Source: a virus
Length of the DNA: 64,000 bases
IMG/VR virus record: IMGVR_UViG_3300031857_000105
Span: 12,778 to 76,777 of that record
Reading direction: 5' to 3' (one strand)
This document shows, one piece after another, positions 11,338 to 64,000 of this stretch. Position 1 is the first letter of the stretch, and each line of letters begins with the position of its first letter. Position numbers and translations under genes: made by a program. Below the pieces are notes generated by a model, which ran no database searches, was not told where the DNA came from, and saw nothing but the letters and a program-made list of their open reading frames with translations.

Positions 11338-14300
11338 ATGGCAGAATTTAAATTAGGTAGAATTAAATTTGTGTACCGAGGTACATGGACAGCGAATCGT
11401 AGCTATAACGTTGACGATGTTGTTACAAACGGCGGAAAAACCTACATTTGTGTAATAGGTCATACTTCAACAAACACAACGGCCGGATTTGCTACCGACC
11501 TAGCAGGTGGTGTTGGAATTACTAAATGGAATCTAATTGCTGACGGCACAACATGGCGCAATAATTGGGCATCAACTACCTATTATAATTTAGGGGATAT
11601 TGTCCTATGGGGTGGAACTGTATACGTTTGTAAAACCGCTCATACTAGCCAAGTATATTTAGAAGACGATCAAAGTAAATGGGATTTGTTTTCTGCAGGA
11701 TTTAAATGGTTAGGCGCTTGGGCTACTAGTACACGATATAAAGTTCGTGATTTTGTCTATTATGGTGGTAGTACTTACGTTTGTAATACACAGCATACTT
11801 CTGCGTCAACAAATGCATCCGGTCTAGAAAATGACATTAGCAAATGGGATATATTTAACCAAGGCGTTACGTATCTTGGCAACTGGAGTGGAAGCAGTGT
11901 AAGATATAAATTAAATGATGTTGTTAAATTTGGCGCCGACTTATGGATTTGTACCGCATATCATACATCAACTGGCACAAGCATTGATACTGGTAATTTT
12001 GCAACATTTGTAAACGGCTTTGAATTTGAAGGGTCTTGGAGTGCCTCTAATGAATACCAAGAAGGCGATGTTGTAACCTATGGTGGTTACACTTATACTG
12101 CTATACAAAATAGTGGAGCTAGTGACCCAAAGACTCCAAGTACACAAACAGCATATTGGAAAGTATTTACATCTGGTTTAGTATATGCTGGCGAATGGAA
12201 TTCTAGTACATCATATCTAATTGGTAATGTTGTAACATTGGGTAGTTATACTTATGTAGCCACCGCTGACAACGCTGCATCAAAGCCGCCTACTTTAACA
12301 GCTACATTCACAGGTAGCATTACTGGAACAGCATTGACAACTTCAGCACCAACCGGCACAATTACCGTTGGTATGACAATAACCGGTGGTACAGTTTCTG
12401 CAGGAACTACTATTGTTTCAGGCAGTGGAAGTAGTTGGGTAGTTAACAACAGTCAAGCAGTGTCTAGTGCTTCTTTAACAGGCATCATTACAAATCCAAA
12501 CTGGGGACAATTAAGTTCTGGTATTCGTTGGGCAGCGGCACCGAACACAACATATACAAACGTTGCTAGTAGTAATCTTATTGCAACAGGTAGTGGTAGC
12601 CCAACATTCACAGTAACACGATCTAGTACAAATTACTCCGTAGTAATTGGCAGTACAGCTGGCACAGGTTATACAGTTAATGACACATTAAAAATTCTAG
12701 GTAACGTTTTAGGAGGCGCAACTCCAGGTAACGACTTAGTAGTTAAGGTTGCAACTATTACAGGCGGCGGCGCAACCGGGCCAATAGGCACCGTTACAGT
12801 AGTTACTGGATATGCATCAACATGGAAAACTGGTATAACCTATGTTATAGGCGATGCAGTCTACTATGGAAATAGTAGTTATATTTGCATTAGTGCTCAT
12901 ATTGGCTCTACTAGCGTTAATGATCCTATTAGCGATACAACTGCCACTTACTGGAATATTTTAGCTAGTGGCGCTGATAGCGGAGCACTAACTACTCAAG
13001 GCGACATGGTATATTATGGCGTCAATGGCCCAACACGCTTACCTATTGGTTCAGATGGCCAAGTACTACGTGTCGATGGCAATCAGCCAAGTTGGAAATA
13101 TTATGGTGAGTTACAAAATATTGTATATGTTGCATCTAGCGGAACAGACGCTATTGGTAACGGACAAGGGTTAACTTTAGACAAGCCATGGAAGACTGTG
13201 GGATATGCTTGTAAACAAGTTGAAGACGGATATCAAAATAGAAATGCCGGATTAATTCTTCAAATTAACAAACAGTTCATGATGAAAGAAGTTAATAATT
13301 ATATATTAACTCAATATTCTTTTAATGTAACTGGAACAGCATCATCAGGCAATACTTTTGTAACTGGCGGAACAAGCACAACAAGTCAGGTAACTACTGC
13401 CAGCATGTACTACGGTATGCCTATTACATTTAGCGCAGCAACAGGTGGTATAACAGTAGGCACAACTTATTATGTTAACACTATACCTAACAGTACTACT
13501 TTTACAATTAGTGATGCATATCAAAGCGGTATAACTAAAACAGTTGGATCAAGTAGTGCAGTTGCTTCTACAGCAAGTTTTGCCTATGTTCAAAGCAAAG
13601 CAGAAAGAGACACTGGCACTGTAATTGATGGAATTGTATTTGATTTAACGCATGGCGGAAATTTATATACAATTACTGCTACTCAAGCGTATTTTAGCAC
13701 TCTTACTTCGTATATTACAACTGGTACAAGACAACAGGCTCCTGTTTTTGCAGGCGCTTTAAGCTACCTTAAGGACATATTATTTCCTGCGGTAATGTCA
13801 AATTCTGCACCGGCTAATAACTATCAAACTATAAGAAGTATTAGTGTTGGTGACAGAGCAATTCAAAATATATCTGGAGTTACAACATCAGATGTAGAGT
13901 CCGGAAGTGTTGCTAGAATACAATCATTGTTGGGTGTTATAACAACTTCATTGTCTACAGGAACATATGGCAATGCCCCATTACTCAACAGACCAAACAC
14001 TACTATCTATTTAAAAACTGGCACATATAACGAATATGGTCCTATTGTAGTTCCTCAAGATACTGCAATTGTAGGAGATGAACTGCGTAGTACTATTGTA
14101 CAAGTTGCGGGCCCCGCAACTTATTTAGGTACTGATAAGCCAAAAACTGCTGCAGCATTAAATCGTTTAAAGACATTATTACCTGATTTAATTTCGAATA
14201 CACCAATAACACCAACTACAACAGGTACACTATTTCCTAATACAAAAACACAGGTAACTAATTTGCCTGTAGGTGATACTGGAAATACTACAGCAGTTAA

Positions 14301-53512: not shown

Positions 53513-53964
53513 TGTGGTACGCTAAAATTGCCAAAGATATTTCTTATATTCCTGACGCTGTTGAATATTTTAACGGCGAGTTAGACAATGCTAGAATGGA
53601 ATGTCGAATTACAGGTAATGTTGAGAAAGCAGCCGCTTCGATGCCCGGTATAGTAGAACAACGATTTAGTCAATTGCAAGAAATTGAGGCAGTTTTAGAA
53701 TATTTAAACATTGAACTTCGTAGATTGAAAAGTAGTCACTTTCGTAAATATCTTGAAAACTATCAACGTGCTTTATCTTCTAGGGACTGTGAAAAGTTCG
53801 TAGAGGGTGAAGCAGACGTTGTAGATTTTGAAAAAATTATTAACGAATTTGCTTTACTACGTAATAAATGGTTAGGTATTACCAAAGCACTTGATCAGAA
53901 ACAATGGCAAATTACTAACATTGTAAAGTTACGTGTCGCTGGCATGGAAGATGCTACACTATGA
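53512..53964 (+). CDS. uvsY: Recombination mediator UvsY
   Basis: Helical 150 aa; 'KYLENYQRALSSRD.EK.VEGE...K.LD.KQWQITNIVKLR.AG'; position after UvsX. Confidence 0.75.
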   Translation: MWYAKIAKDISYIPDAVEYFNGELDNARMECRITGNVEKAAASMPGIVEQRFSQLQEIEAVLEYLNIELRRLKSSHFRKYLENYQRALSSRDCEKFVEGEADVVDFEKIINEFALLRNKWLGITKALDQKQWQITNIVKLRVAGMEDATL

Positions 53965-54716
53965 AGATAGTTTTAGTAACTGGCGGTTTTGACCCACTAC
54001 ACAGTGGACATATTGAATATTTTAAAGAAGCTAAAAAGTTAGGCGATAAATTAATCGTTGGACTTAATAGTGATGCTTGGTTGGAACGAAAAAAAGGTCG
54101 TGCATTTATGCCAGGGCATGAACGTTCTGCTATTATAGAAAATCTTAAAATGGTCGATGGTATTATATTGTTTAATGACGATGACAATACTGCATCCGAA
54201 GCTATTAAAAACGTAAAACAACTGTATCCTAACGATCAAATAATATTTGCTAACGGTGGTGATCGCAATGCAGGCAACATTCCAGAAATGTTAATACCCG
54301 ATGTATTATTTAAATTTGGAATCGGCGGCGCAAATAAGACTAACAGTTCAAGTTGGATCTTAGACGAGTGGAAAGCACCAAAGACTGAACGCCCATGGGG
54401 ATATTATCGTGTGTTGCACGAAGTACCTGGTACTAAAGTTAAAGAGCTTACGGTTAATCCAGGACAAAGTTTAAGTTTGCAAAGACACAAATTTAGGCAT
54501 GAGTTTTGGCATGTCACTTCTGGAAAATGTGCAGTTGAACAACGAATGCCGGGTGGTTATATGCTACCTACTATCGAATTAACTGCTCATAAGCAAGTAA
54601 GTGTTCCTATCAATGATTGGCATCGGATTTATAATCCTTACAACGAACCATGTAAAATTGTAGAAATACAATACGGTGAGTCGTGTACAGAAGACGACAT
54701 AGAACGTCAAAACTAA
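53961..54716 (+). CDS. Cytidylyltransferase (HxGH) fused to a mannose-6-phosphate-isomerase-type cupin
   Basis: VTGGFDPLHSGH...VGLNSD.WL.RKKG...FANGGDR; C-terminal TERPWGYY...VKEL.V.PG.SLSLQRH..R.E.W...EIQYG...EDDIER. Confidence 0.85.
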   Translation: MKIVLVTGGFDPLHSGHIEYFKEAKKLGDKLIVGLNSDAWLERKKGRAFMPGHERSAIIENLKMVDGIILFNDDDNTASEAIKNVKQLYPNDQIIFANGGDRNAGNIPEMLIPDVLFKFGIGGANKTNSSSWILDEWKAPKTERPWGYYRVLHEVPGTKVKELTVNPGQSLSLQRHKFRHEFWHVTSGKCAVEQRMPGGYMLPTIELTAHKQVSVPINDWHRIYNPYNEPCKIVEIQYGESCTEDDIERQN

Positions 54717-54813: not shown

Positions 54814-55992
54814 ATGACAACAGTAGATAACATACTCTTACAAATAATCAACGCATCTGATGATACAATTAGTGCTATTAAATCACGAGATTTAAAAGTA
54901 ATGAAAAGTTTGGCAAAAATAGTGTTGTCTCCAAACTTTATTACAGAAAATCAGGGAAGATTGCTTTTAAAGATTTTAAATGAAAATTTAGAAAAATTTG
55001 GAAATCTTTCAGATGAAGTAAATTCCGCAATCAACACGCCTACTTGGTCAAAATCATTTCGTCCAATTGACAAAACTAAAAAAATATACCTATCTAAAGA
55101 CGAACCAGGCATAGTTATAGAATTTGCATTTTCTTCAACATTGCGTAAGGTGCTTACGAGTATTTGGAAGGATGTTGCAGGTCTTACTCAAATCAATTCA
55201 GGCAAATTTTATCGAGCTGACCTTACTGAAAAAAACATTGTAACACTCTACGAAACCTTTCATACTCATGATTTTGAAATAGAGGAAAAAATTTGCAATT
55301 TTTACGATACTATAAAATCTTGGTCAAAAATTGAGGTTGAAAGTCAGTTTATACTAACCAACTTTTCTCATGCAAACTTTCAAAAAGCCATAACGCATGA
55401 TCTCGGCCTTGAAACAGAAATAGACAAATGTGTCATACAAGACCGAAGTATTCGGTATCAGTATTTTGTGGAAAATACCCCAGAAAATCCCAAAAATTTG
55501 ACCGAAAAAATTGCATTTCGTAAATCTAGTAAAGTGTGGATTAATAAAACTGAAACTGGTCTTGACGAAATATTCGAAAGTTTGTTAAAATTAAAACGAT
55601 TACCGGCACTAATTATTTTCGATAACAACGACCATAAAAGGTGCTTTGAAGAACTGAAAAATCTTCATGAAAATTTGGAAAAAAATGGAATTTTTGAGGG
55701 TGTGGGAATTTATTTCAGATTGCCCAATGACGAGTATGGAACTCAGTTTAATAAATTTATTGCTGAACACCAATACAATGTACAACTCGATGATTATGCA
55801 AAAGTTGTCGGAGTACAAAACGGAAAAATACCCAAATTTTTCCTGAAAAATGCGTGGAAGCCGCTTAGTGTGATATCAATAGGCAGTCCACTAAAACAAA
55901 CTAAAACGGCAGCGTATTCTAATTGTTGTGATTTGATAATTTCCTATACAGACCAACAACCTATTATTGAAACAGGAAACTTATGGCTGTAA
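54814..55992 (+). CDS. Hypothetical protein
   Basis: About 392-aa ORF overlapping the UvsW start; no motif recognised. Confidence 0.6.
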   Translation: MTTVDNILLQIINASDDTISAIKSRDLKVMKSLAKIVLSPNFITENQGRLLLKILNENLEKFGNLSDEVNSAINTPTWSKSFRPIDKTKKIYLSKDEPGIVIEFAFSSTLRKVLTSIWKDVAGLTQINSGKFYRADLTEKNIVTLYETFHTHDFEIEEKICNFYDTIKSWSKIEVESQFILTNFSHANFQKAITHDLGLETEIDKCVIQDRSIRYQYFVENTPENPKNLTEKIAFRKSSKVWINKTETGLDEIFESLLKLKRLPALIIFDNNDHKRCFEELKNLHENLEKNGIFEGVGIYFRLPNDEYGTQFNKFIAEHQYNVQLDDYAKVVGVQNGKIPKFFLKNAWKPLSVISIGSPLKQTKTAAYSNCCDLIISYTDQQPIIETGNLWL

Positions 55993-57449
55993 AATTAGTT
56001 ATAAAAGACGAGGTTAACATTAAATTTGAAGGGTTAGCATTAGATGCCCGCAAAAAGTTAGCCAACACTTTTAAGTATGAAATTCCCTATGCTCGCTATC
56101 ATCCAGCTTACAAACTAGGTCGATGGGATGGTATGGTTAGTATGTTTGGCCTTGGCGGCAATGGTTATTTAAGCCAACTAGAAAAGATACTATCTGTGCT
56201 ATCCAGCATGAATATCGATATTGATGAATTGGAAGATTTACGTTCAACACCTAAACTTTCATTCACTCCTGTTACAGAAACTTATTGGGCGGACCAAGGC
56301 AAAGTATGGCCAAAAGGTCACCAGCAGGAAGGTAAACCCATATTGTTGCGCGACTATCAAGTAGACGCAATTAACAGATTTATTGAAAATACACAAAGCC
56401 TACAAGAGATTGCCACTGGTGCAGGAAAGACTATTACAACTGCTACTCTTAGTCAGCTTTCTGAAAAATATGGACGGACAATTACCATTGTACCTAATAA
56501 GAGTCTTGTAGAGCAAACAGAAGAAGATTTTATTGCTGTAGGTTTAGATGTTGGTGTATATTACGGAGATCGCAAAGATCTTAATAAGACACATACTATT
56601 TGTACATGGCAAAGTCTTAATATCTTAGATAAGAAAAGTAAAAATCAAGAACAAGATATTGTAACTCTTGCAGAATTTCTTGACGGCGTTAAATGTGTCA
56701 TAGTCGACGAAGTTCATATGGCAAAAGCTGAAGTTTTGAGATCGTTACTTACACAAAATTTATGCAATGCGCCAATCCGCTGGGGATTAACTGGAACTGT
56801 TCCTAAAGAAAAATTTGAAAGCGAACAGATATTTGCCAGCATTGGCCCAGTAATTGGCGGCATTAAAGCTCACGAGTTACAAGAAATGGGAGTGCTATCT
56901 AATTGCCACGTTAACGTAGTGCAAATGATAGATTTACCAGAATTTAGAAGTTATGCTGAAGAATTAAAATATCTTGTAACAGATGACAACAGGATGTTAT
57001 ACATCAGCAACTTAATAAAAGGCATTAGTGAATCTGGAAACACATTAGTACTTGTTAACAGAATCGATTCAGGCAAATTTTTAGTAAATGAATTGGAAGG
57101 CGCAGTATTCATTTCCGGGGAAGTAAAAACAAAGGATAGGAAAGAAGAGTATGATGAAGTTAAAACTAGTAGTGAAAAGATTATTGTGGCGACTTATGGT
57201 GTGGCCGCTGTTGGTATTAATATCCCAAGGATTTTTAATTTGGTTCTTCTTGAGCCCGGAAAGAGCTTTGTTAGGGTTATACAAAGTATTGGGCGAGGCA
57301 TTAGAAAAGCAGAAGACAAAGATTTTGTCCAGATCTGGGACGTTACAAGCACCTGCAAATACGCCAAGCGACACTTAACAGAGCGAAAGAAATTTTACAA
57401 GGAAGCCAAGTATCCGTTTACATTAGAAAAAACGGACTGGACAAAATAA
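55983..57449 (+). CDS. uvsW: SF2 DNA helicase UvsW
   Basis: WDG...LRDYQ, ATGAGKT, IVDEVH, GLTGT, ATYG...GINIP, QSIGRG.R. Confidence 0.9.
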   Translation: MAVKLVIKDEVNIKFEGLALDARKKLANTFKYEIPYARYHPAYKLGRWDGMVSMFGLGGNGYLSQLEKILSVLSSMNIDIDELEDLRSTPKLSFTPVTETYWADQGKVWPKGHQQEGKPILLRDYQVDAINRFIENTQSLQEIATGAGKTITTATLSQLSEKYGRTITIVPNKSLVEQTEEDFIAVGLDVGVYYGDRKDLNKTHTICTWQSLNILDKKSKNQEQDIVTLAEFLDGVKCVIVDEVHMAKAEVLRSLLTQNLCNAPIRWGLTGTVPKEKFESEQIFASIGPVIGGIKAHELQEMGVLSNCHVNVVQMIDLPEFRSYAEELKYLVTDDNRMLYISNLIKGISESGNTLVLVNRIDSGKFLVNELEGAVFISGEVKTKDRKEEYDEVKTSSEKIIVATYGVAAVGINIPRIFNLVLLEPGKSFVRVIQSIGRGIRKAEDKDFVQIWDVTSTCKYAKRHLTERKKFYKEAKYPFTLEKTDWTK

Positions 57450-57455
57450 GGAATT

Positions 57456-57962
57456 ATGCAAATATTAACATTAGATAACGTAACATTTTCGTTGAACAAT
57501 TTACCGGACGAGGTAGACGATAGTACAAGATTCGCAGTACTTGATAACAGTGATCCGCATAATCCAGATTTTTTCTTTATGCCACTGATATTTTTAGAAT
57601 CTTTTAATAGTCCCGCAATGGTACTAAGAATCGGCGAAGATGAAGTAACAATGCCCATCGATTGGAGCATTGCGGTAGGTGATAGTAGTGCTGCAACCGA
57701 CATTGAAATTCTTCCTCTTACAAGTTTAAATGACAGGGGGTTTGAAGCATTAATTTTTAATCCACTTAGCAGTTTTAGAGTTGAGTTTAAGAAAATTGAA
57801 ATTGTAAATTTTTATAATGACGTTAAATGGTATTTCCCAAAGATGAAAAACGGACAACTGTTAGCAGTTCCAACCCGCTTTCAAGAAAAACCAAACTGTG
57901 CATATTTTGTTAAAGAAATTAGTAGACAAAGCGAAATTATTCAATTAGATAAAATATTATGA
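57456..57962 (+). CDS. Hypothetical protein, possible degenerate Hint-fold
   Basis: 168-aa beta-rich ORF with AAGGA RBS; spacing resembles Hint blocks but the catalytic residues are missing. Confidence 0.6.
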   Translation: MQILTLDNVTFSLNNLPDEVDDSTRFAVLDNSDPHNPDFFFMPLIFLESFNSPAMVLRIGEDEVTMPIDWSIAVGDSSAATDIEILPLTSLNDRGFEALIFNPLSSFRVEFKKIEIVNFYNDVKWYFPKMKNGQLLAVPTRFQEKPNCAYFVKEISRQSEIIQLDKIL

Positions 57963-58102
57963 CCGACAAAGAATTATTAGATCGAATTAATACAGCATAT
58001 AAAGTGTATCCACATCCAAGCAAAGAAATTGATTTTTTTATATCTTGGATGTATAAACAATATGGAATTGTACAACAGGAGAAAAAAGATGGGAAGCCTT
58101 AA
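57959..58102 (+). CDS. Small hypothetical protein (47 aa; not in the ORF track)
   Basis: MTDKELLDRINTAYKVYPHPSKEIDFFISWMYKQYGIVQQEKKDGKP; ATGA overlap with the upstream stop. Confidence 0.5.
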   Translation: MTDKELLDRINTAYKVYPHPSKEIDFFISWMYKQYGIVQQEKKDGKP

Positions 58103-58379
58103 ACCTGGCGTAACACTTATACATGAACGTGTAGATAATGTAGTCTACACTAGAGAATTTGGATCAGATCCTAGTACTAGACAAGTAGCAGGATGGGATT
58201 ATAATAAAGCCAATCCACATTTTGATCCTCGTACAAATGATGGCAGACCATTACATGATCATATAATGGATAGCAAAATGTGGGGTGAAATTCGGAGAGA
58301 AGCACGTACCAATATCACTTTACAAAAGGCCCTAGATCGTGTTATAATGATATACAAATTGAGTAAGGACAAAGTATAA
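58089..58379 (+). CDS. Hypothetical protein
   Basis: AGGAG RBS before ATG 58089 (MGSLKPG...). Confidence 0.6.
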   Translation: MGSLKPGVTLIHERVDNVVYTREFGSDPSTRQVAGWDYNKANPHFDPRTNDGRPLHDHIMDSKMWGEIRREARTNITLQKALDRVIMIYKLSKDKV

Positions 58380-59005
58380 TGGCATTAAAAGTTGCATATT
58401 TTCAACCAACAGTATTAGCTATTGATAATGTTCCGCCTGTAGAATTTAGTAAAATTTATAGTCTAGCTGAAGCATTACACAACAGACCAGAATTAAATGA
58501 TGCCAATAATCCTGCAATTAGTATTAGAGGAGGTCAACAAATACAAGTATATCCAAATGCGATAGGCATAGATGTTACTTGGTTAGTCAATTGGCTTCAA
58601 ACAATTTGTACCGGATATATGGAATTGGTATCTCAACAATCTGGTACCGAAGAATTAAAACATTGTAAACCTGTGGTAACTAGTATTTGGACTATACGAC
58701 AGCATTCTGGAGACTATCAAGAGATGCATAGTCATCCCGGCGGCAATTTAAGCGGCAATATATATCTTAGCGCACCCGAGTTAAATGACACACGAAATCC
58801 TAGTGACAGTCAAATTTTATTTAGATTACCGCAAACAAAAGATGTCACCAAATTTATTATGAATGACACTTGGAAATATGACCCAATACCTGGAACTATC
58901 ATAGTGTTTCCAAGTCACTTGCCCCATACAGTTTATCCCTGGCAAGGAATTGGAAATAGAACCGTAGTAGCATTTGATGCCATATTGAGACCAAAAGATG
59001 AGTGA
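58379..59005 (+). CDS. 2OG-Fe(II) oxygenase (TIGR02466-like)
   Basis: SIW...GDYQEMHSH..GNLSG.IY...VFPSHLPHTVYP...RTVVAFD. Confidence 0.8.
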   Translation: MALKVAYFQPTVLAIDNVPPVEFSKIYSLAEALHNRPELNDANNPAISIRGGQQIQVYPNAIGIDVTWLVNWLQTICTGYMELVSQQSGTEELKHCKPVVTSIWTIRQHSGDYQEMHSHPGGNLSGNIYLSAPELNDTRNPSDSQILFRLPQTKDVTKFIMNDTWKYDPIPGTIIVFPSHLPHTVYPWQGIGNRTVVAFDAILRPKDE

Positions 59006-59477
59006 AAAAGTTGAGCTAAAAGAAAAGATTTCAGCAGTCGATGAAAATGTTCGCGAGCTATGGGATGCTATGGATGCTGAACAACAAAAGAGTCTCAAAA
59101 GCGAATTCTTTATTCTTAACAGATATATCAGTAATGCTAAAACATCTAACAGAGAAACTCAGCAACACTTTGTATTGACAGTTAACGAATATTTTAATAA
59201 ACATTGGAATCTACTACAAAAACATCCTAAGCTCATGTGGTTGTTATTGTGTATGTGCAGCTATGATGGCAAAACACATTTTTATCACGAATGGATTGGC
59301 AACAAAAAGAAAACTGGCAGTGATAGTAAAAAAGTTAAATTTTTAACAGATATCTACCCTAATAGAAAAATAGACGAGATAGAACTGTTAGCTAAAATGA
59401 CGACAGATAAAGAGTTAAAAGAATTAGCAAAACGATACGGAATGGAAGATTCAACAATTACTAAAAAATTTAAATGA
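58998..59477 (+). CDS. Putative clamp-loader small subunit (gp62-like)
   Basis: FFILNRYIS...VNE...HPKL.W.L...FYHEWI..KKK...FL..IYP pattern and replication-block context; weak similarity. Confidence 0.4.
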   Translation: MSEKVELKEKISAVDENVRELWDAMDAEQQKSLKSEFFILNRYISNAKTSNRETQQHFVLTVNEYFNKHWNLLQKHPKLMWLLLCMCSYDGKTHFYHEWIGNKKKTGSDSKKVKFLTDIYPNRKIDEIELLAKMTTDKELKELAKRYGMEDSTITKKFK

Positions 59478-60166
59478 TGTCATTAATTAGTCAGCCTTAC
59501 ATTTGTCAGCACTGTAACAAAGGGTTCATGCAAGAAAAAACCCTTATCGTACATGTTTGCGAACAAAAACGACGAGCAATGGCTAAATCTGAAAGACACG
59601 TAGTACTTGGATACGATACATACAATCGATTTTATAAAATTTCTCAGAACAGTAAAGGCGACAAAACATACGAAGAGTTTGCTAGAAGTCCGTACTATAA
59701 TGCATTTGTAAAGTTTGGAAGTTTTGTAAGTAATGTAAATCCACTGTATCCTGAAAAGTTTATCGACTACGTTGTTAGATCAGGCGTTAAATTGGATCAT
59801 TGGTGTAGAGAGGAATTATACGAAAAATATGTATTGGATCTTATTAAGACAGAACCAGTCGAAGTTGCGCTAGAGCGTAGCATCAAACATATGATGGACT
59901 GGGCAGAAAAAAATCAAAGTGTATGGCATCATTACTTTTTATACGTTAGTTTGAGCCGTGCAACATATGATATTAAAGACGGAAAAGTTAGTCCTTGGTT
60001 AATACTAAACAGTTCAAATGGTAAGGAAATGTTGAAAAAATTGGGCGATGAACAGCTGGTTTCTATAAGTAATATTATAGACTTGCAGTTTTGGCTCAAC
60101 AAATTTAAAAAGTTGCCTGCTGATACAGAACTTGTGCGTCAAGTCGTTAAGGAATCTAATATATGA
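59474..60166 (+). CDS. Hypothetical protein with N-terminal C2HC zinc finger
   Basis: YICQHCNKGFMQEKTLIVHVC. Confidence 0.6.
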   Translation: MMSLISQPYICQHCNKGFMQEKTLIVHVCEQKRRAMAKSERHVVLGYDTYNRFYKISQNSKGDKTYEEFARSPYYNAFVKFGSFVSNVNPLYPEKFIDYVVRSGVKLDHWCREELYEKYVLDLIKTEPVEVALERSIKHMMDWAEKNQSVWHHYFLYVSLSRATYDIKDGKVSPWLILNSSNGKEMLKKLGDEQLVSISNIIDLQFWLNKFKKLPADTELVRQVVKESNI

Positions 60167-60360
60167 CAACTACACCAAACCAAGTGAGCGGTAACCCAGA
60201 TGCACTACAACTTGAACTACAAGTAATTGTTTCAGAGGAAGATAATTCAGTATACGTAAAATTTATTGGATTCGAAACAATAGAAGAAGCAGACAAGTAT
60301 GCAGATCATCTAACAGAACATTTGCCATTGTTGCTGTTCGAAAGCGAGATAAAACATTGA
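60163..60360 (+). CDS. Small hypothetical protein
   Basis: 65-aa coupled ORF. Confidence 0.5.
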   Translation: MTTTPNQVSGNPDALQLELQVIVSEEDNSVYVKFIGFETIEEADKYADHLTEHLPLLLFESEIKH

Positions 60361-60545
60361 GACACTTAAAAGACGGAACTAAGGCTAAAGAATTAAAAGA
60401 ACCAGTTACACTTACAGTCTATACAAAATGTCCAGAAAAGTGGATGTTATGCGATAAAGAAACAGGCGAAGTGTATATTGGACACATGACCAAAGGTAAG
60501 AATAGTTGGAAGAAAATTGACCAGTGGGACGGAAAAGATGCCTGA
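60357..60545 (+). CDS. Small hypothetical protein
   Basis: 62 aa; TKCPEKWML.DKETGEVYIG. Confidence 0.5.
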   Translation: MRHLKDGTKAKELKEPVTLTVYTKCPEKWMLCDKETGEVYIGHMTKGKNSWKKIDQWDGKDA

Positions 60546-61119
60546 TATTGATATTGACTTTGCTAATAGAACACATGCTCTTGATAAATTCAAGCATGTA
60601 GTTTCGGCTATTAAAGAGGATGATGGCACTTTTAAAAAGCACAATACTGGCATATATTGTACTAGTGTGCCGTACAATCCAATTACTAAACTAAGTACAA
60701 TCGATTATAAAGAAGCAGAAGATAGAGGTTATTTTAAAATAGATTTTTTGAATGTTAGTGTTTACGAAGGTGTAAAAGACAGAAAACATTTACTTGAATT
60801 AATGGAGACTGAACCGCTATGGGACCTACTAGAACAAGACGATTTTACCCAACTCCTGTTCCATGTGAATGGGCATGGGTCTATTCTGAGACAAAGCAAA
60901 CCAAGATCTATCGAGCAATTAGCAGCAGTACTGGCAATGATTCGACCCGCGAAACGTTATCTGATTGGGAAAGATTGGACTACGATTATGACGGAAGTAT
61001 GGACGAAACCGGAGAACGATGAGTACTACTTTAAGAAAGCACATGCCATTGCTTACGCACATGTGATTGTTGTACAGATGAATTTAATCTGCGAAGGTCT
61101 TAGCTACGGCTACAGTTAA
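60538..61119 (+). CDS. dnaE: Miniature DNA polymerase III alpha (DnaE/family C)-like nucleotidyltransferase, 193 aa
   Basis: PDIDIDF, KHNTG, GYFKIDFLNV, KPRSIEQLAAVLAMIRP and YYFKKAHAIAYA are collinear with DnaE motifs. Confidence 0.75.
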   Translation: MPDIDIDFANRTHALDKFKHVVSAIKEDDGTFKKHNTGIYCTSVPYNPITKLSTIDYKEAEDRGYFKIDFLNVSVYEGVKDRKHLLELMETEPLWDLLEQDDFTQLLFHVNGHGSILRQSKPRSIEQLAAVLAMIRPAKRYLIGKDWTTIMTEVWTKPENDEYYFKKAHAIAYAHVIVVQMNLICEGLSYGYS

Positions 61120-61490
61120 CGAGTTTTACGTACTAATTGTACACTTTTACGTTTTACACGTTTCATTGTTAAATTCATCAAATTAACAACTGGCCCTAAT
61201 ATAATCCTAACATCTTTGCTATTAAATGTTCGCACAGCATAAGCAAAGGGTTTAATTTGATCTCTACAGATTATACTAATAGGAAATTGACGGTTTGATT
61301 CCCACCACCAAGTTTCTCCTATTTCTAAAAATAGTGTTTTTTCTTGTGGATCACGTATTGCATTTAAATCATAGAAACTAGTTACATACTGGTCCTGATT
61401 GATTATGATGCCCACGTATTCTTCTTCACCGTAGTTTAATACGCTTATAAAGGGTAGATTTTGTTCTATATCGTCTCTTAGTTTTGCCAT
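61116..61490 (-). CDS. Hypothetical protein
   Basis: MAKLRDDIEQNLPFIS...EYVGII.N...WWWESNRQFPI...KRVKRKSVQLVRK. Confidence 0.6.
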   Translation of the reverse strand: MAKLRDDIEQNLPFISVLNYGEEEYVGIIINQDQYVTSFYDLNAIRDPQEKTLFLEIGETWWWESNRQFPISIICRDQIKPFAYAVRTFNSKDVRIILGPVVNLMNLTMKRVKRKSVQLVRKTR

Positions 61491-61516
61491 AAATATACAA
61501 TAAGGGTTTGTGCCAG

Positions 61517-62632
61517 ATGCAAAAAATTTCAAGTTATTTATATCCAAATAGGATTGAACTACTAGCCAATTTGGCAGGATTTACTACGGAGTATACAAAC
61601 GTGTATCAGAGAACAATAAAAATTTATAACGGTATAGATAACACTATAGAGTTTGATATCAAGAATGCCGATCAAAAAAGATTAGAGCTGATTACAGACT
61701 CTGGAGCAACTCCACCTAAGGTTGCTGTTGTAACCGGTATTGAATTAAATGTTATGGATGCATCTGGTCAAGCGTTACCTAATAGTCCTTATACAGTTAC
61801 TCCACACCCAACACTAAAAGGTATCGCAACTGTAACGATTCCGCAAGAAGATCTAGCAGATTTATCGGACCAATATTTAAAATACAGTGTAACAGCTAGA
61901 GCTAACGGTAACGACATTATGTTATACGGAGATAGTCGCTTTGGAGCAACAGGTACTATTGAGTTAATTGGCAATGCAATGCCAACATTTAGAAATGATA
62001 GAGTTTACGAATCTTTTACAGCAGAAATAGATTTAAAAGGTTTTCCAACTTGGCATTCTAGCGCAATACCTGCAAGATTTTACGAAGCAGTTAAAACAGA
62101 AACTTTACAATTTGATATAGATGTTAAAGGATTAACTGGTAATGTTTGGATTGAAGCAACTAAACAAAGTACAGTTAACACCGAAGCGTTCAAAAAAGGC
62201 GACATCGTCTATTCATTTCCCGATTGTGATGATGCAACCGAGACATTGTCTTCTCCAAATCTTACCATTGGAGACTATCAATATTACAGAGTTTCATATG
62301 CTACCCAATTAGGAAATGGCATTGGAGCTACTTTCACTGTTACACAAAATAATGGCAGTTATGAAGTTGCAGTTAGAGCTGGCGGAACAGGCTATGCAGT
62401 TGGCAGTCAACTTAAAGTATTTGGTAGTGTAATCGGTGGCACAGATGGTGTTAACGACCTGACTATTACAGTTGAATCCGTTGATAGTGCGTCAACTGGA
62501 TACATTTCGAGCTATTCAGTAAGTTCTGCAAATAGTGTTTCTTGGACTGGAAATGCCGCAATTGGTTCGTCTACTTTTGTAGTAACGGGCAAAAATATTA
62601 CCGGAACTGTTGACAAAGTAACCGTCAGTTAA
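61517..62632 (+). CDS. Probable virion structural protein carrying a module shared with the giant tail proteins
   Basis: IKIYNGIDNTIEFDIKNADQK N-terminal domain; C-terminal GATFTVT...GGTGY.VG..LKV.GS.IGG..GVNDL.ITV module; TAAATA upstream. Confidence 0.55.
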   Translation: MQKISSYLYPNRIELLANLAGFTTEYTNVYQRTIKIYNGIDNTIEFDIKNADQKRLELITDSGATPPKVAVVTGIELNVMDASGQALPNSPYTVTPHPTLKGIATVTIPQEDLADLSDQYLKYSVTARANGNDIMLYGDSRFGATGTIELIGNAMPTFRNDRVYESFTAEIDLKGFPTWHSSAIPARFYEAVKTETLQFDIDVKGLTGNVWIEATKQSTVNTEAFKKGDIVYSFPDCDDATETLSSPNLTIGDYQYYRVSYATQLGNGIGATFTVTQNNGSYEVAVRAGGTGYAVGSQLKVFGSVIGGTDGVNDLTITVESVDSASTGYISSYSVSSANSVSWTGNAAIGSSTFVVTGKNITGTVDKVTVS

Positions 62633-62645: not shown

Positions 62646-63653
62646 ATGAGTCTCATAGCCGATACATTACTTCAATATCTACCTTCGAAGCGTAAACATA
62701 CTCCAAGTGGTTGGATAAGTTTCAATGCGCCGTGTTGTGACGACAAACGACAACGTGGTGGATTTATTATCAACGGTGGCGATGCCGTTAGCTATCATTG
62801 TTTTAATTGTGGATTTAAAGCAAGTTGGCAACCTGGTAGAACTATTAGCCAAAAAATGAATAAGCTCATGCGGGATTTAAACATTCCCGATGATATTATA
62901 TCTCAACTACGTTTGGAAGCACTAAGATTAAATGAAAATTCTACAGCCACAATAAGACAAATTATACCAACGTTTGAAGTTAGAGCATTGCCAATAGATG
63001 CTATTAGTTTTGAAGAGTTAACTACATTCTTAAAACTTCCAGACGGAGATTATGCAGTCCCAACAAAGTTTACTGAAGCATTTGCCTACTTAGTTGAAAG
63101 AAAAATCGATCCGTGGAGTTATCCATTTTACTGGGCTAATAAGACAGGATTTAATAATAGACTTATCATTCCATTCTTATACAAGGGTGAAATAGTTGGG
63201 TGGACTGCCCGTGCTATTAATGATGCCAAACCTAAGTATCTAAGCGAGCAACAACCTGGCTTTGTCTTTAACTTAGATCGTCAAACTAACGAAAGAGATT
63301 TCGTAATTGTTAGTGAAGGGCCGTTTGATGCGCTAAGTATTGACGGGTGTGCTTTATTAGGTGCCGAGATTAAAGACAGCCAAAATTGGTTACTTAAACA
63401 ATTAGGTAAAGAAATTGTTCTAGTACCAGATAGGGACCACGAAGGTCCTAGAACAGTAGAACAAGCGATAGACTATGGTTGGAGTGTCAGTATGCCCGAC
63501 TGGCCTAAAGGTGTTAAGGATATCAACGATGCCGTAGTTAAACTAGGACGTTTGGCAACATTATACTTGATTACATCTGCAAAAGAATCTAACAGTTTAA
63601 AGATACAACTAAAAGCTAAAAAGTGGTTTAAGGAACATGAAGAGAATACTTGA
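62646..63653 (+). CDS. gp61: DNA primase (T4 gp61-like, Zn finger + TOPRIM)
   Basis: NAPCC.D...YHCFNCG; RLIIPF...VGWTAR...KYL; VSEGPFDA; VPDRD..G; KDINDA. Confidence 0.85.
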   Translation: MSLIADTLLQYLPSKRKHTPSGWISFNAPCCDDKRQRGGFIINGGDAVSYHCFNCGFKASWQPGRTISQKMNKLMRDLNIPDDIISQLRLEALRLNENSTATIRQIIPTFEVRALPIDAISFEELTTFLKLPDGDYAVPTKFTEAFAYLVERKIDPWSYPFYWANKTGFNNRLIIPFLYKGEIVGWTARAINDAKPKYLSEQQPGFVFNLDRQTNERDFVIVSEGPFDALSIDGCALLGAEIKDSQNWLLKQLGKEIVLVPDRDHEGPRTVEQAIDYGWSVSMPDWPKGVKDINDAVVKLGRLATLYLITSAKESNSLKIQLKAKKWFKEHEENT

Positions 63654-63750
63654 AATATTTTTAATGCCTGTAAAATGGTGGCAGGCAAGACAAGCATATA
63701 AAAAACGTCTGGAAGAATTACGTAAACGAGATCCATTTATATACAAATGA
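63637..63750 (+). CDS. Small hypothetical protein (37 aa; not in the ORF track)
   Basis: AAGGA RBS; MKRILEIFLMPVKWWQARQAYKKRLEELRKRDPFIYK; ATGA overlap with the next gene. Confidence 0.55.
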   Translation: MKRILEIFLMPVKWWQARQAYKKRLEELRKRDPFIYK

Positions 63751-64000
63751 TTACATGGGGAATAAGCGCCAACAGTCACGATGCAGCTATCGCTGTATTT
63801 TGTGATGAGAAATTAGTCTTTGCCAGTCACAGCGAGCGATTCAGCGGCAAAAAGAATGATAAAGATTTATCTCCTAAATTAATCGATTACGCAATTAAAA
63901 AGTTTGGAGCTCCAAAAAAAGTATATTGGTACGAAAATCCATTGTTTAAAACAGCACGTCAGCTATTTGCTGGCCAAGGCTGGAAATGGCAAGACAATAA
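63747..64000 (+). CDS. Carbamoyltransferase (NodU/CmcH family), N-terminal part, runs off the window
   Basis: MITWGISANSHDAAIAVF...LVFASHSERFSGKKND...WYENP. Confidence 0.8.
   Translation, partial: MITWGISANSHDAAIAVFCDEKLVFASHSERFSGKKNDKDLSPKLIDYAIKKFGAPKKVYWYENPLFKTARQLFAGQGWKWQDN

Follow-up and report, generated by a model that had tools for sequence, protein, structure and literature searches.

A probable C-terminal subunit of a two-piece minimal family-C DNA polymerase on a fragment of an uncultured phage genome

A small gene in the DNA of an uncultured phage very probably encodes the C-terminal subunit of a two-piece minimal family-C (DnaE/Pol III alpha-type) polymerase of the T4-like group 2.2 jumbo phages. 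The gene lies at 60538..61119 on the plus strand of the window, the 64,000-nucleotide stretch analyzed here, which covers positions 12,778 to 76,777 of the IMG/VR record IMGVR_UViG_3300031857_000105 and extends to the end of that record, a 76.8-kb fragment estimated to hold about 21% of a genome. The 193-aa product, called the C-unit below, comprises the second half of the palm and reduced fingers, as judged from its matches to the protein families phrog_11778 and phrog_405, an AlphaFold2 (AF2) model, structure comparison with VIA-align and the dN/dS ratio.

The split minimal Pol III alpha of group 2.2 jumbo phages has already been described by Iyer, Anantharaman, Krishnan, Burroughs and Aravind (2021, Viruses 13:63; PMC7824862, sections 3.4.1 and 3.5), who predicted from sequence an arrangement in which a Pol III alpha encoded by two distant genes accompanies a family-B enzyme. 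The gene in the window very probably belongs to a further example of this arrangement. The family also has existing labels, namely “DNA polymerase” in PHROGs and “DNA polymerase” or “DnaE-like DNA polymerase III alpha” in several GenBank records. A literature search for a published activity test of the split minimal Pol III alpha found none.

The gene, its motifs and its conservation

The open reading frame begins with an ATG at 60538 and ends with a TAA at 61117-61119, and the N-terminus of its product reads MPDIDIDF. The stop of a 62-aa frame upstream overlaps this start by 8 nt. The initial annotation had described an intact frame of 193 aa, with its own ATG and stop and five motifs in the order found in DnaE, and this description is confirmed, including the translation it quoted. 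The PDIDIDF motif (residues 2-8; 60541..60561, plus strand) matches positions 441-452 of phrog_405, and the structural alignment with the E. coli enzyme begins here, at residue 400/401. D3 and D5 are the two metal-binding aspartates of the first strand, and by position we take them to be the equivalents of E. coli D401 and D403. The KIDFLN motif (residues 67-72; 60736..60753, plus strand) holds K67 and the third catalytic aspartate, D69, and is aligned to E. coli “VKFDFLGL” in a profile search of the PDB. Two motifs belong to the fingers. The first, IRPAK (residues 135-139; 60940..60954, plus strand), is aligned to “LFRPG” of E. coli Pol III alpha at about 637-641 and also has a weak match to PF17657 (E 0.08), and the second, YYFKKAHAIAYA (residues 163-174; 61024..61059, plus strand), is aligned to “YGFNKSHSAAYAL” of the same enzyme, within 741-770.

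The 193-aa protein matches phrog_11778, “DNA polymerase,” from end to end (E 7.6e-67). It also gives three collinear matches to the DnaE-like phrog_405, a profile of 1190 positions, at 441-452, 579-678 and 776-809 (E 3e-8). When a profile of 85 homologues was searched against the PDB, Pol III alpha chains were the only matches (E 1.1e-5 to 1.6e-4). In the resulting alignment, K67-x-D69 corresponds to the K-F-D of E. coli “GLVKFDFLGL,” IRP to “FRPG” (about 640), and FKKxHAxAYA to “FNKSHSAAYAL” (about 755-766). With the C-unit as a single sequence, no Pfam model scored above its threshold, the sole match being PF17657 at 12.7 bits versus a cut-off of 22 (E 0.08), and phmmer against the PDB gave only chance matches to cellobiose phosphorylase. 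A megablast search of 6 kb against isolated phages had no match. The motif order in this reading frame reflects homology with DnaE and not chance.

The family to which the gene belongs is large and well conserved. IMG/VR holds at least 549 relatives of the C-unit. Of the best 80, 79 begin with M-P-D-I/L-D-I/L-D and have a stop in the same frame 0-41 codons ahead of that start. Searching 1.84 billion cluster representatives gave 418 clusters at 50% identity (E <=1e-3), and the clusters holding a full-length C-unit are 183-219 aa long and aligned from their first residues. Sixty-nine distinct close relatives are 186-194 aa long, and compared with the window gene they have a median dN/dS of 0.10. 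Across the 85 homologues (29-56% identity), D3, D5, K67, D69 and P137 are invariant, and D7, H35, G38, R136, K139, K166, H169 and A174 are at least 90% conserved. Strong purifying selection acts on this intact gene, which is not a broken fragment.

These observations bear directly on the idea that the gene is a decaying fragment or a frameshifted remnant of a full-length DnaE. The idea draws on the length of the protein, which is far shorter than DnaE, and on the weak single-sequence searches of Pfam and the PDB. It is already refuted by the conservation data and retains next to no likelihood: the dN/dS of 0.10, the uniform length of 186-194 aa, the hundreds of same-length clusters, the invariant catalytic residues and the conserved start with its upstream stops all speak against it. 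Also, when all six frames of the entire contig were searched with the DnaE-like profile, no signal lay outside ORF 60538-61119, and there was no match to a PHP domain. The initial annotation had likewise judged the gene to be no broken fragment, and the same-length homologues, their conserved aspartates (D3, D5 and D69 invariant) and the dN/dS well below 1 bear this out.

Structure of the C-unit and what it lacks

The AlphaFold2 model of the C-unit, made with the alignment of 85 homologues, has a mean pLDDT of 96.5 and a pTM of 0.89. Searched with Foldseek, its best 18 matches were all family-C polymerases, and so were its best 15 in VIA-align, where the next unrelated fold followed at Z 3.2. 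Residues 1-191 align with residues 461-841 of Taq Pol III alpha (Z 9.7, rmsd 3.8 Å, 190 aligned), and the C-unit also aligns with residues 971-1299 of PolC (Z 9.3) and residues 400-784 of E. coli Pol III alpha (Z 8.8). The likeness to DnaE noted in the initial annotation is seen in the model as well, with Z from 9.7 down to 8.8. In Pol III alpha of E. coli and Taq, the part matched by these roughly 190 residues of the C-unit is about 385 residues long. From these comparisons, the C-unit is the second half of a Pol-beta-like palm (D3, D5, D69 and K67) together with reduced fingers (R136-P137 and K166/H169).

The compactness of the protein comes from two internal gaps and from what is absent at its ends. 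From D7 to alignment position 54 there are about 47 residues versus about 133 in E. coli, so that about 86 residues are gone from the stretch that links the aspartate pair to the K-x-D strand in the cellular enzyme, and the thumb is therefore absent. From RP to YxFKK/FxKxH there are about 26 residues versus about 114 in E. coli, that is, about 88 fewer, and about 90 residues of the fingers are gone. Both the internal deletion of the thumb and the shortening of the fingers had been read correctly from the sequence at the outset, as had the absence of the PHP, clamp-binding and OB parts. The C-unit ends at about E. coli residue 784 and has no PHP, clamp-binding, HhH/OB or tau-binding parts.

The C-unit shares with the Pol III alpha enzymes of E. 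coli (2hnh), Taq (2hpi/3e0d) and M. tuberculosis (DnaE1, 5lew) and with PolC (3f2b) a Pol-beta-like palm with three aspartates and K-x-D, and it has the finger motifs RP and FxK(S/A)H in the same order, with Z of 8.8-9.7 over 187-190 residues. Unlike them, it lacks the thumb, about 90 finger residues and the PHP, clamp-binding, HhH/OB and tau-binding parts. Another difference from these enzymes is that the first half of the palm, with its GRGSS motif, is on another polypeptide.

This last difference matters for how the C-unit is understood. The initial annotation had proposed a self-sufficient, “designed-down” enzyme with “all catalytic motifs in 193 aa,” that is, a mini polymerase or nucleotidyltransferase with every catalytic element in one small protein. 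The three aspartates, K67 and the finger motifs are indeed present and invariant, and the model suggests that the C-unit folds confidently alone (pLDDT 96.5). However, the first half of the palm, with the nucleotide-binding G-S motif, is not in the C-unit; the chain opens directly with the PDxDxDF strand, its first aspartate strand, and its structural match starts from E. coli residue 400. Because the protein starts at this strand without the GRGSS palm half, its sequence suggests that it is not a complete enzyme alone. Also, the G-S half exists as a separate, co-occurring gene, and natural fusions join both halves in DnaE order (both are described below). The claim therefore holds for the aspartate, K-x-D and finger motifs and fails for the G-S motif, and a self-sufficient enzyme is highly improbable.

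The partner half and its natural fusions

In related phages, the missing half of the palm has a gene of its own, whose product of about 170 aa carries a GRGSS motif and belongs to the family phrog_11127/PF07733; it is called the N-unit here. The initial annotation had offered, as an alternative, one part of a split polymerase completed by the neighboring gene at 59474..60166. The idea of a split is right in principle, and the partner, as seen in relatives, is the distant phrog_11127/PF07733 gene rather than this neighbor, which belongs to phrog_11058 and has no DnaE signal. Other neighboring frames were considered as the missing piece as well, and scans of 57456-60545 and 61116-62632 gave no DnaE signal.

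An example of the N-unit comes from phage Sharanji, whose published description lists a “DNA polymerase III DnaE” gene (PMC11895373). This gene is the N-unit and not a homologue of the product of ORF 60538-61119. Its protein, WNN14566.1 (172 aa), belongs to phrog_11127 (E 3e-87), ends “...GLGRGSSVASY...NEFLKW” and matches positions 360-429 of phrog_405, directly ahead of the first match of the C-unit at 441. The N-unit of a close relative of the window ends “...GVGRGSSVASY...REFLR” and passes PF07733, the DNA_pol3_alpha NTPase domain, at 46.5 bits versus a cut-off of 23.9. In general, N-units end “...EFLR” or “...EFLK” where DnaE runs on into PDxDxDF, and the site at which DnaE has been cut is the loop between “...ERFL” and “PDxDxDF.” Near the N-unit gene, Sharanji has a gene annotated as “chaperonin 10 Kd subunit.” In an IMG/VR relative, a frame in a similar position (L088:899-1243, minus strand; listed alongside L007:13019-13345, minus strand) is putatively GroES-like as judged by eye, and the same relative has a further small frame at L088:531-902.

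On the 76.8-kb contig itself, no N-unit was found by searches with the protein, phrog_11127 or PF07733. Since the contig holds about 21% of the genome, this absence is uninformative, and the pairing of the two halves in the source phage rests on its relatives. The C-units on five long contigs are 73-80% identical to the product of ORF 60538-61119. All four of these contigs that are at least 51% complete have one N-unit each, in a separate open frame of 169-176 aa that lies 160-185 kb from the C-unit. The fifth (41% complete) and four shorter contigs (16-40% complete) have no N-unit, which is expected for fragments and adds no support. From these relatives, we infer that the two halves are also paired in the phage from which the window comes.

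The same pairing is seen in isolated phages, in which the distance between the N-unit and the C-unit is 30 kb in 121Q, 43 kb in PA5oct and 182 kb in Atu_ph07. Seven genera appear in both isolated-phage searches (Escherichia, Pseudomonas, Klebsiella, Erwinia, Salmonella, Xanthomonas and Yersinia), and in each the numbers of N-units and C-units are equal or one apart. In metagenomes, the N-unit forms at least 7,999 clusters at 90% identity (E <=1e-5; 8,000 candidates scored), and many of these carry the JGI label “DNA polymerase III alpha subunit.”

In a few cases, the two halves are found in one chain. Three assemblies encode an N-unit followed by a C-unit in DnaE order, as P0109 (375 aa) and as P0153 and P0154 (376 aa; from ENA and Logan assemblies), with a linker of about 10 residues (“...KEFIKDNKEGIYNIADFDID...”). 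These fused forms make up only three clusters at 90% identity, and a search of IMG/VR did not find them. They have the same C-terminal module as the C-unit, about 35% identical to the product of ORF 60538-61119, and differ from it by the fused N-unit and the linker. Their nearest relatives are split forms, with N-units 43-66% and C-units 51-59% identical.

A model of the fused protein was made with a joint alignment of N- and C-units, in which the first six residues of the C-units were misplaced. Its mean pLDDT is 93.5 and its pTM 0.90, with the linker alone uncertain, although Pol III alpha structures that AlphaFold has already seen may have shaped part of the fold. The model aligns with M. 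tuberculosis DnaE1 at Z 21.8 over 328 residues and with Taq Pol III alpha (Z 19.9), PolC (Z 17.7) and the E. coli enzyme (Z 15.6); the next fold class, Pol-beta-like nucleotidyltransferases such as the CCA-adding enzyme and Cid1, follows at about Z 3. The doubling of Z from the C-unit alone to the fusion indicates that the two halves pack as they do in DnaE, a modeling result that supports this packing and does not prove it.

The fusions raise the question of how the separate halves come together. DnaE is the classic host of split inteins, and the two halves could be joined covalently by one, as happens in cyanobacterial DnaE. There, likewise, two distant genes encode the catalytic subunit of DnaE. 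However, the N-units end “...EFLR/K” directly at the stop, with no N-terminal intein fragment; the C-unit starts M-P-D-I-D, with no C-terminal intein fragment; and polymerase sequence accounts fully for both proteins. The chance that a split intein is at work is vanishingly small. Unlike the cyanobacterial halves, the phage halves have no intein fragments, are cut inside the palm and presumably associate non-covalently.

Genomic setting and possible function

The C-unit gene sits in a block that is common to the window and to E. coli phage 121Q, Pseudomonas phage Paride and Sinorhizobium phage Phosso: a UvsW gene, a zinc-finger protein, the C-unit, a small gene on the opposite strand and a primase. 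In the window, the block starts with a UvsW-type helicase at 55983..57449 on the plus strand (phrog_16, E 8.6e-75; ResIII, DEAD and Helicase_C domains), and a UvsW-like gene is in the same place in 121Q. Upstream of the C-unit is a plus-strand gene at 59474..60166 that encodes a 230-aa protein with an N-terminal zinc-finger-like CxxC...HxxxC; it matches phrog_11058 (E 3.2e-60), to which no function is assigned there, and has no Pfam match. Phages 121Q, Paride and Phosso each have a homologue of this 230-aa protein (25-37% identity) just ahead of the C-unit gene, and this zinc-finger neighbor is a possible partner of the C-unit. An Atlas search with the neighbor gave viral hypothetical clusters only. 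Directly downstream of the C-unit is a small minus-strand gene at 61116..61547 (phrog_11637, E 2.2e-31, with no function annotated), and a gene of the same position and strand is found in Phosso, 121Q and Paride. The block closes with a DnaG/T4 gp61-type primase at 62646..63653 on the plus strand (phrog_47 “DNA primase,” E 2.5e-48; Toprim_2, E 1.2e-5), which is syntenic with 121Q, Paride and Phosso. Between the small opposite-strand gene and the primase, 121Q and Phosso also have a gene annotated as a virion structural protein.

Several other genes in and around this block deserve mention in their own right. Between UvsY and the UvsW-type helicase sits a plus-strand gene at 53961-54716 whose 251-aa product has a cytidylyltransferase-like domain (PF01467) fused to the C-terminal mannose-6-phosphate isomerase/cupin domain PF01050. 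Inside the replication block are a plus-strand gene for a 168-aa protein at 57456-57962 (phrog_11279, E 7.9e-42, function unassigned there; no Pfam match) and a plus-strand 2OG-Fe(II) oxygenase gene at 58379-59005 (PF13759, E 5.5e-18; phrog_81). After the primase, at 63747-64000 on the plus strand, comes the N-terminus of a carbamoyltransferase (PF02543, E 3.5e-5) that is cut by the contig end and occupies the place of a DnaB-type helicase in the isolated relatives.

In the window, the T4-type replication and recombination set consists of a gp32-type SSB, UvsX, UvsY, the UvsW-type helicase and the primase, and this T4-like setting is shared with the group 2.2 jumbo phages. A family-B polymerase (PF00136) has no match on the fragment of about 21% itself, and frames of about 890 aa match it in three of the four long relatives. 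The initial annotation had suggested a search of the rest of the genome for a family-B polymerase or other DnaE pieces. Searches of the fragment found neither, and among the four long relatives that are at least 51% complete, three have the family-B enzyme and all four have the N-unit (the fifth long contig, 41% complete, is without an N-unit).

The C-unit of the group 2.2 jumbo phages (phrog_11778; 121Q gp16 and Phosso gp437) is, like that of the window, a stand-alone protein of about 190 aa that represents the portion of the core binding Mg2+ and template. Those phages also have the distant N-terminal NTP-binding unit and the family-B polymerase, both of which were found in long relatives of the window's phage. 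The C-units of isolated phages are 40-51% identical to that of the window, the closest isolated phage being at 51%, and they share synteny with it. The window gene differs in coming from an uncultured phage and from a genome fragment on which the partner gene was not found, which is no difference in kind.

How might a polymerase core in two pieces work? The N-unit and the C-unit would dock non-covalently and rebuild one active site, in which the N-unit would hold the triphosphate of the incoming dNTP and the C-unit would supply the two Mg2+ ions along with contacts to the template and the dNTP. The reconstituted enzyme may be an accessory template-dependent polymerase beside the family-B replicase, used for example in primer extension or repair. 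One possibility is that the pair extends primers made by the primase before a hand-off; in Firmicutes, DnaE extends primers before their hand-off to PolC. Of course, there is no thumb, clamp-binding motif or OB domain with which to grip the DNA, and this counts against such an enzyme. The zinc-finger neighbor at 59474-60166 might supply the missing grip. That the pair of about 360 aa, or the 375-aa fusion, is an active template-dependent polymerase, a specialized partner of the family-B replicase that manages without thumb, clamp contact and OB domain, is a tentative and rather doubtful proposal.

One could also consider a pair that is real and is no templated polymerase at all. It might then be a terminal transferase, add tails to primers, synthesize a nucleotide signal or be a replisome component without catalytic activity; end-tailing and nucleotide signaling had been among the roles suggested in the initial annotation. 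The absence of the thumb, clamp-binding and OB elements would fit such a role, and this phage group already has a family-B replicase. The next-best structural relatives of the fused model are Pol-beta-like nucleotidyltransferases such as the CCA-adding enzyme and Cid1, though at about Z 3 only. However, the finger motifs are still there and hardly vary, and in Pol III alpha, these motifs contact the template and the incoming dNTP. The gene also lies within a conserved helicase-primase replication block, and on this evidence a role outside templated synthesis is improbable.

With the two-piece polymerase core as the preferred reading, the family shows that a DnaE-type core can be reduced to about 360 residues and cut through its active site. 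In the same family, one set of replisome genes is seen to hold both a bacterial-type polymerase core and a family-B replicase of the archaeo-eukaryotic type. If the pair or the fusion is active, it would be the smallest family-C enzyme by far and would offer a minimal scaffold for studies of family-C catalysis. It would also mean that a jumbo phage group that is very abundant in the environment has a second, as yet unexplained polymerase.
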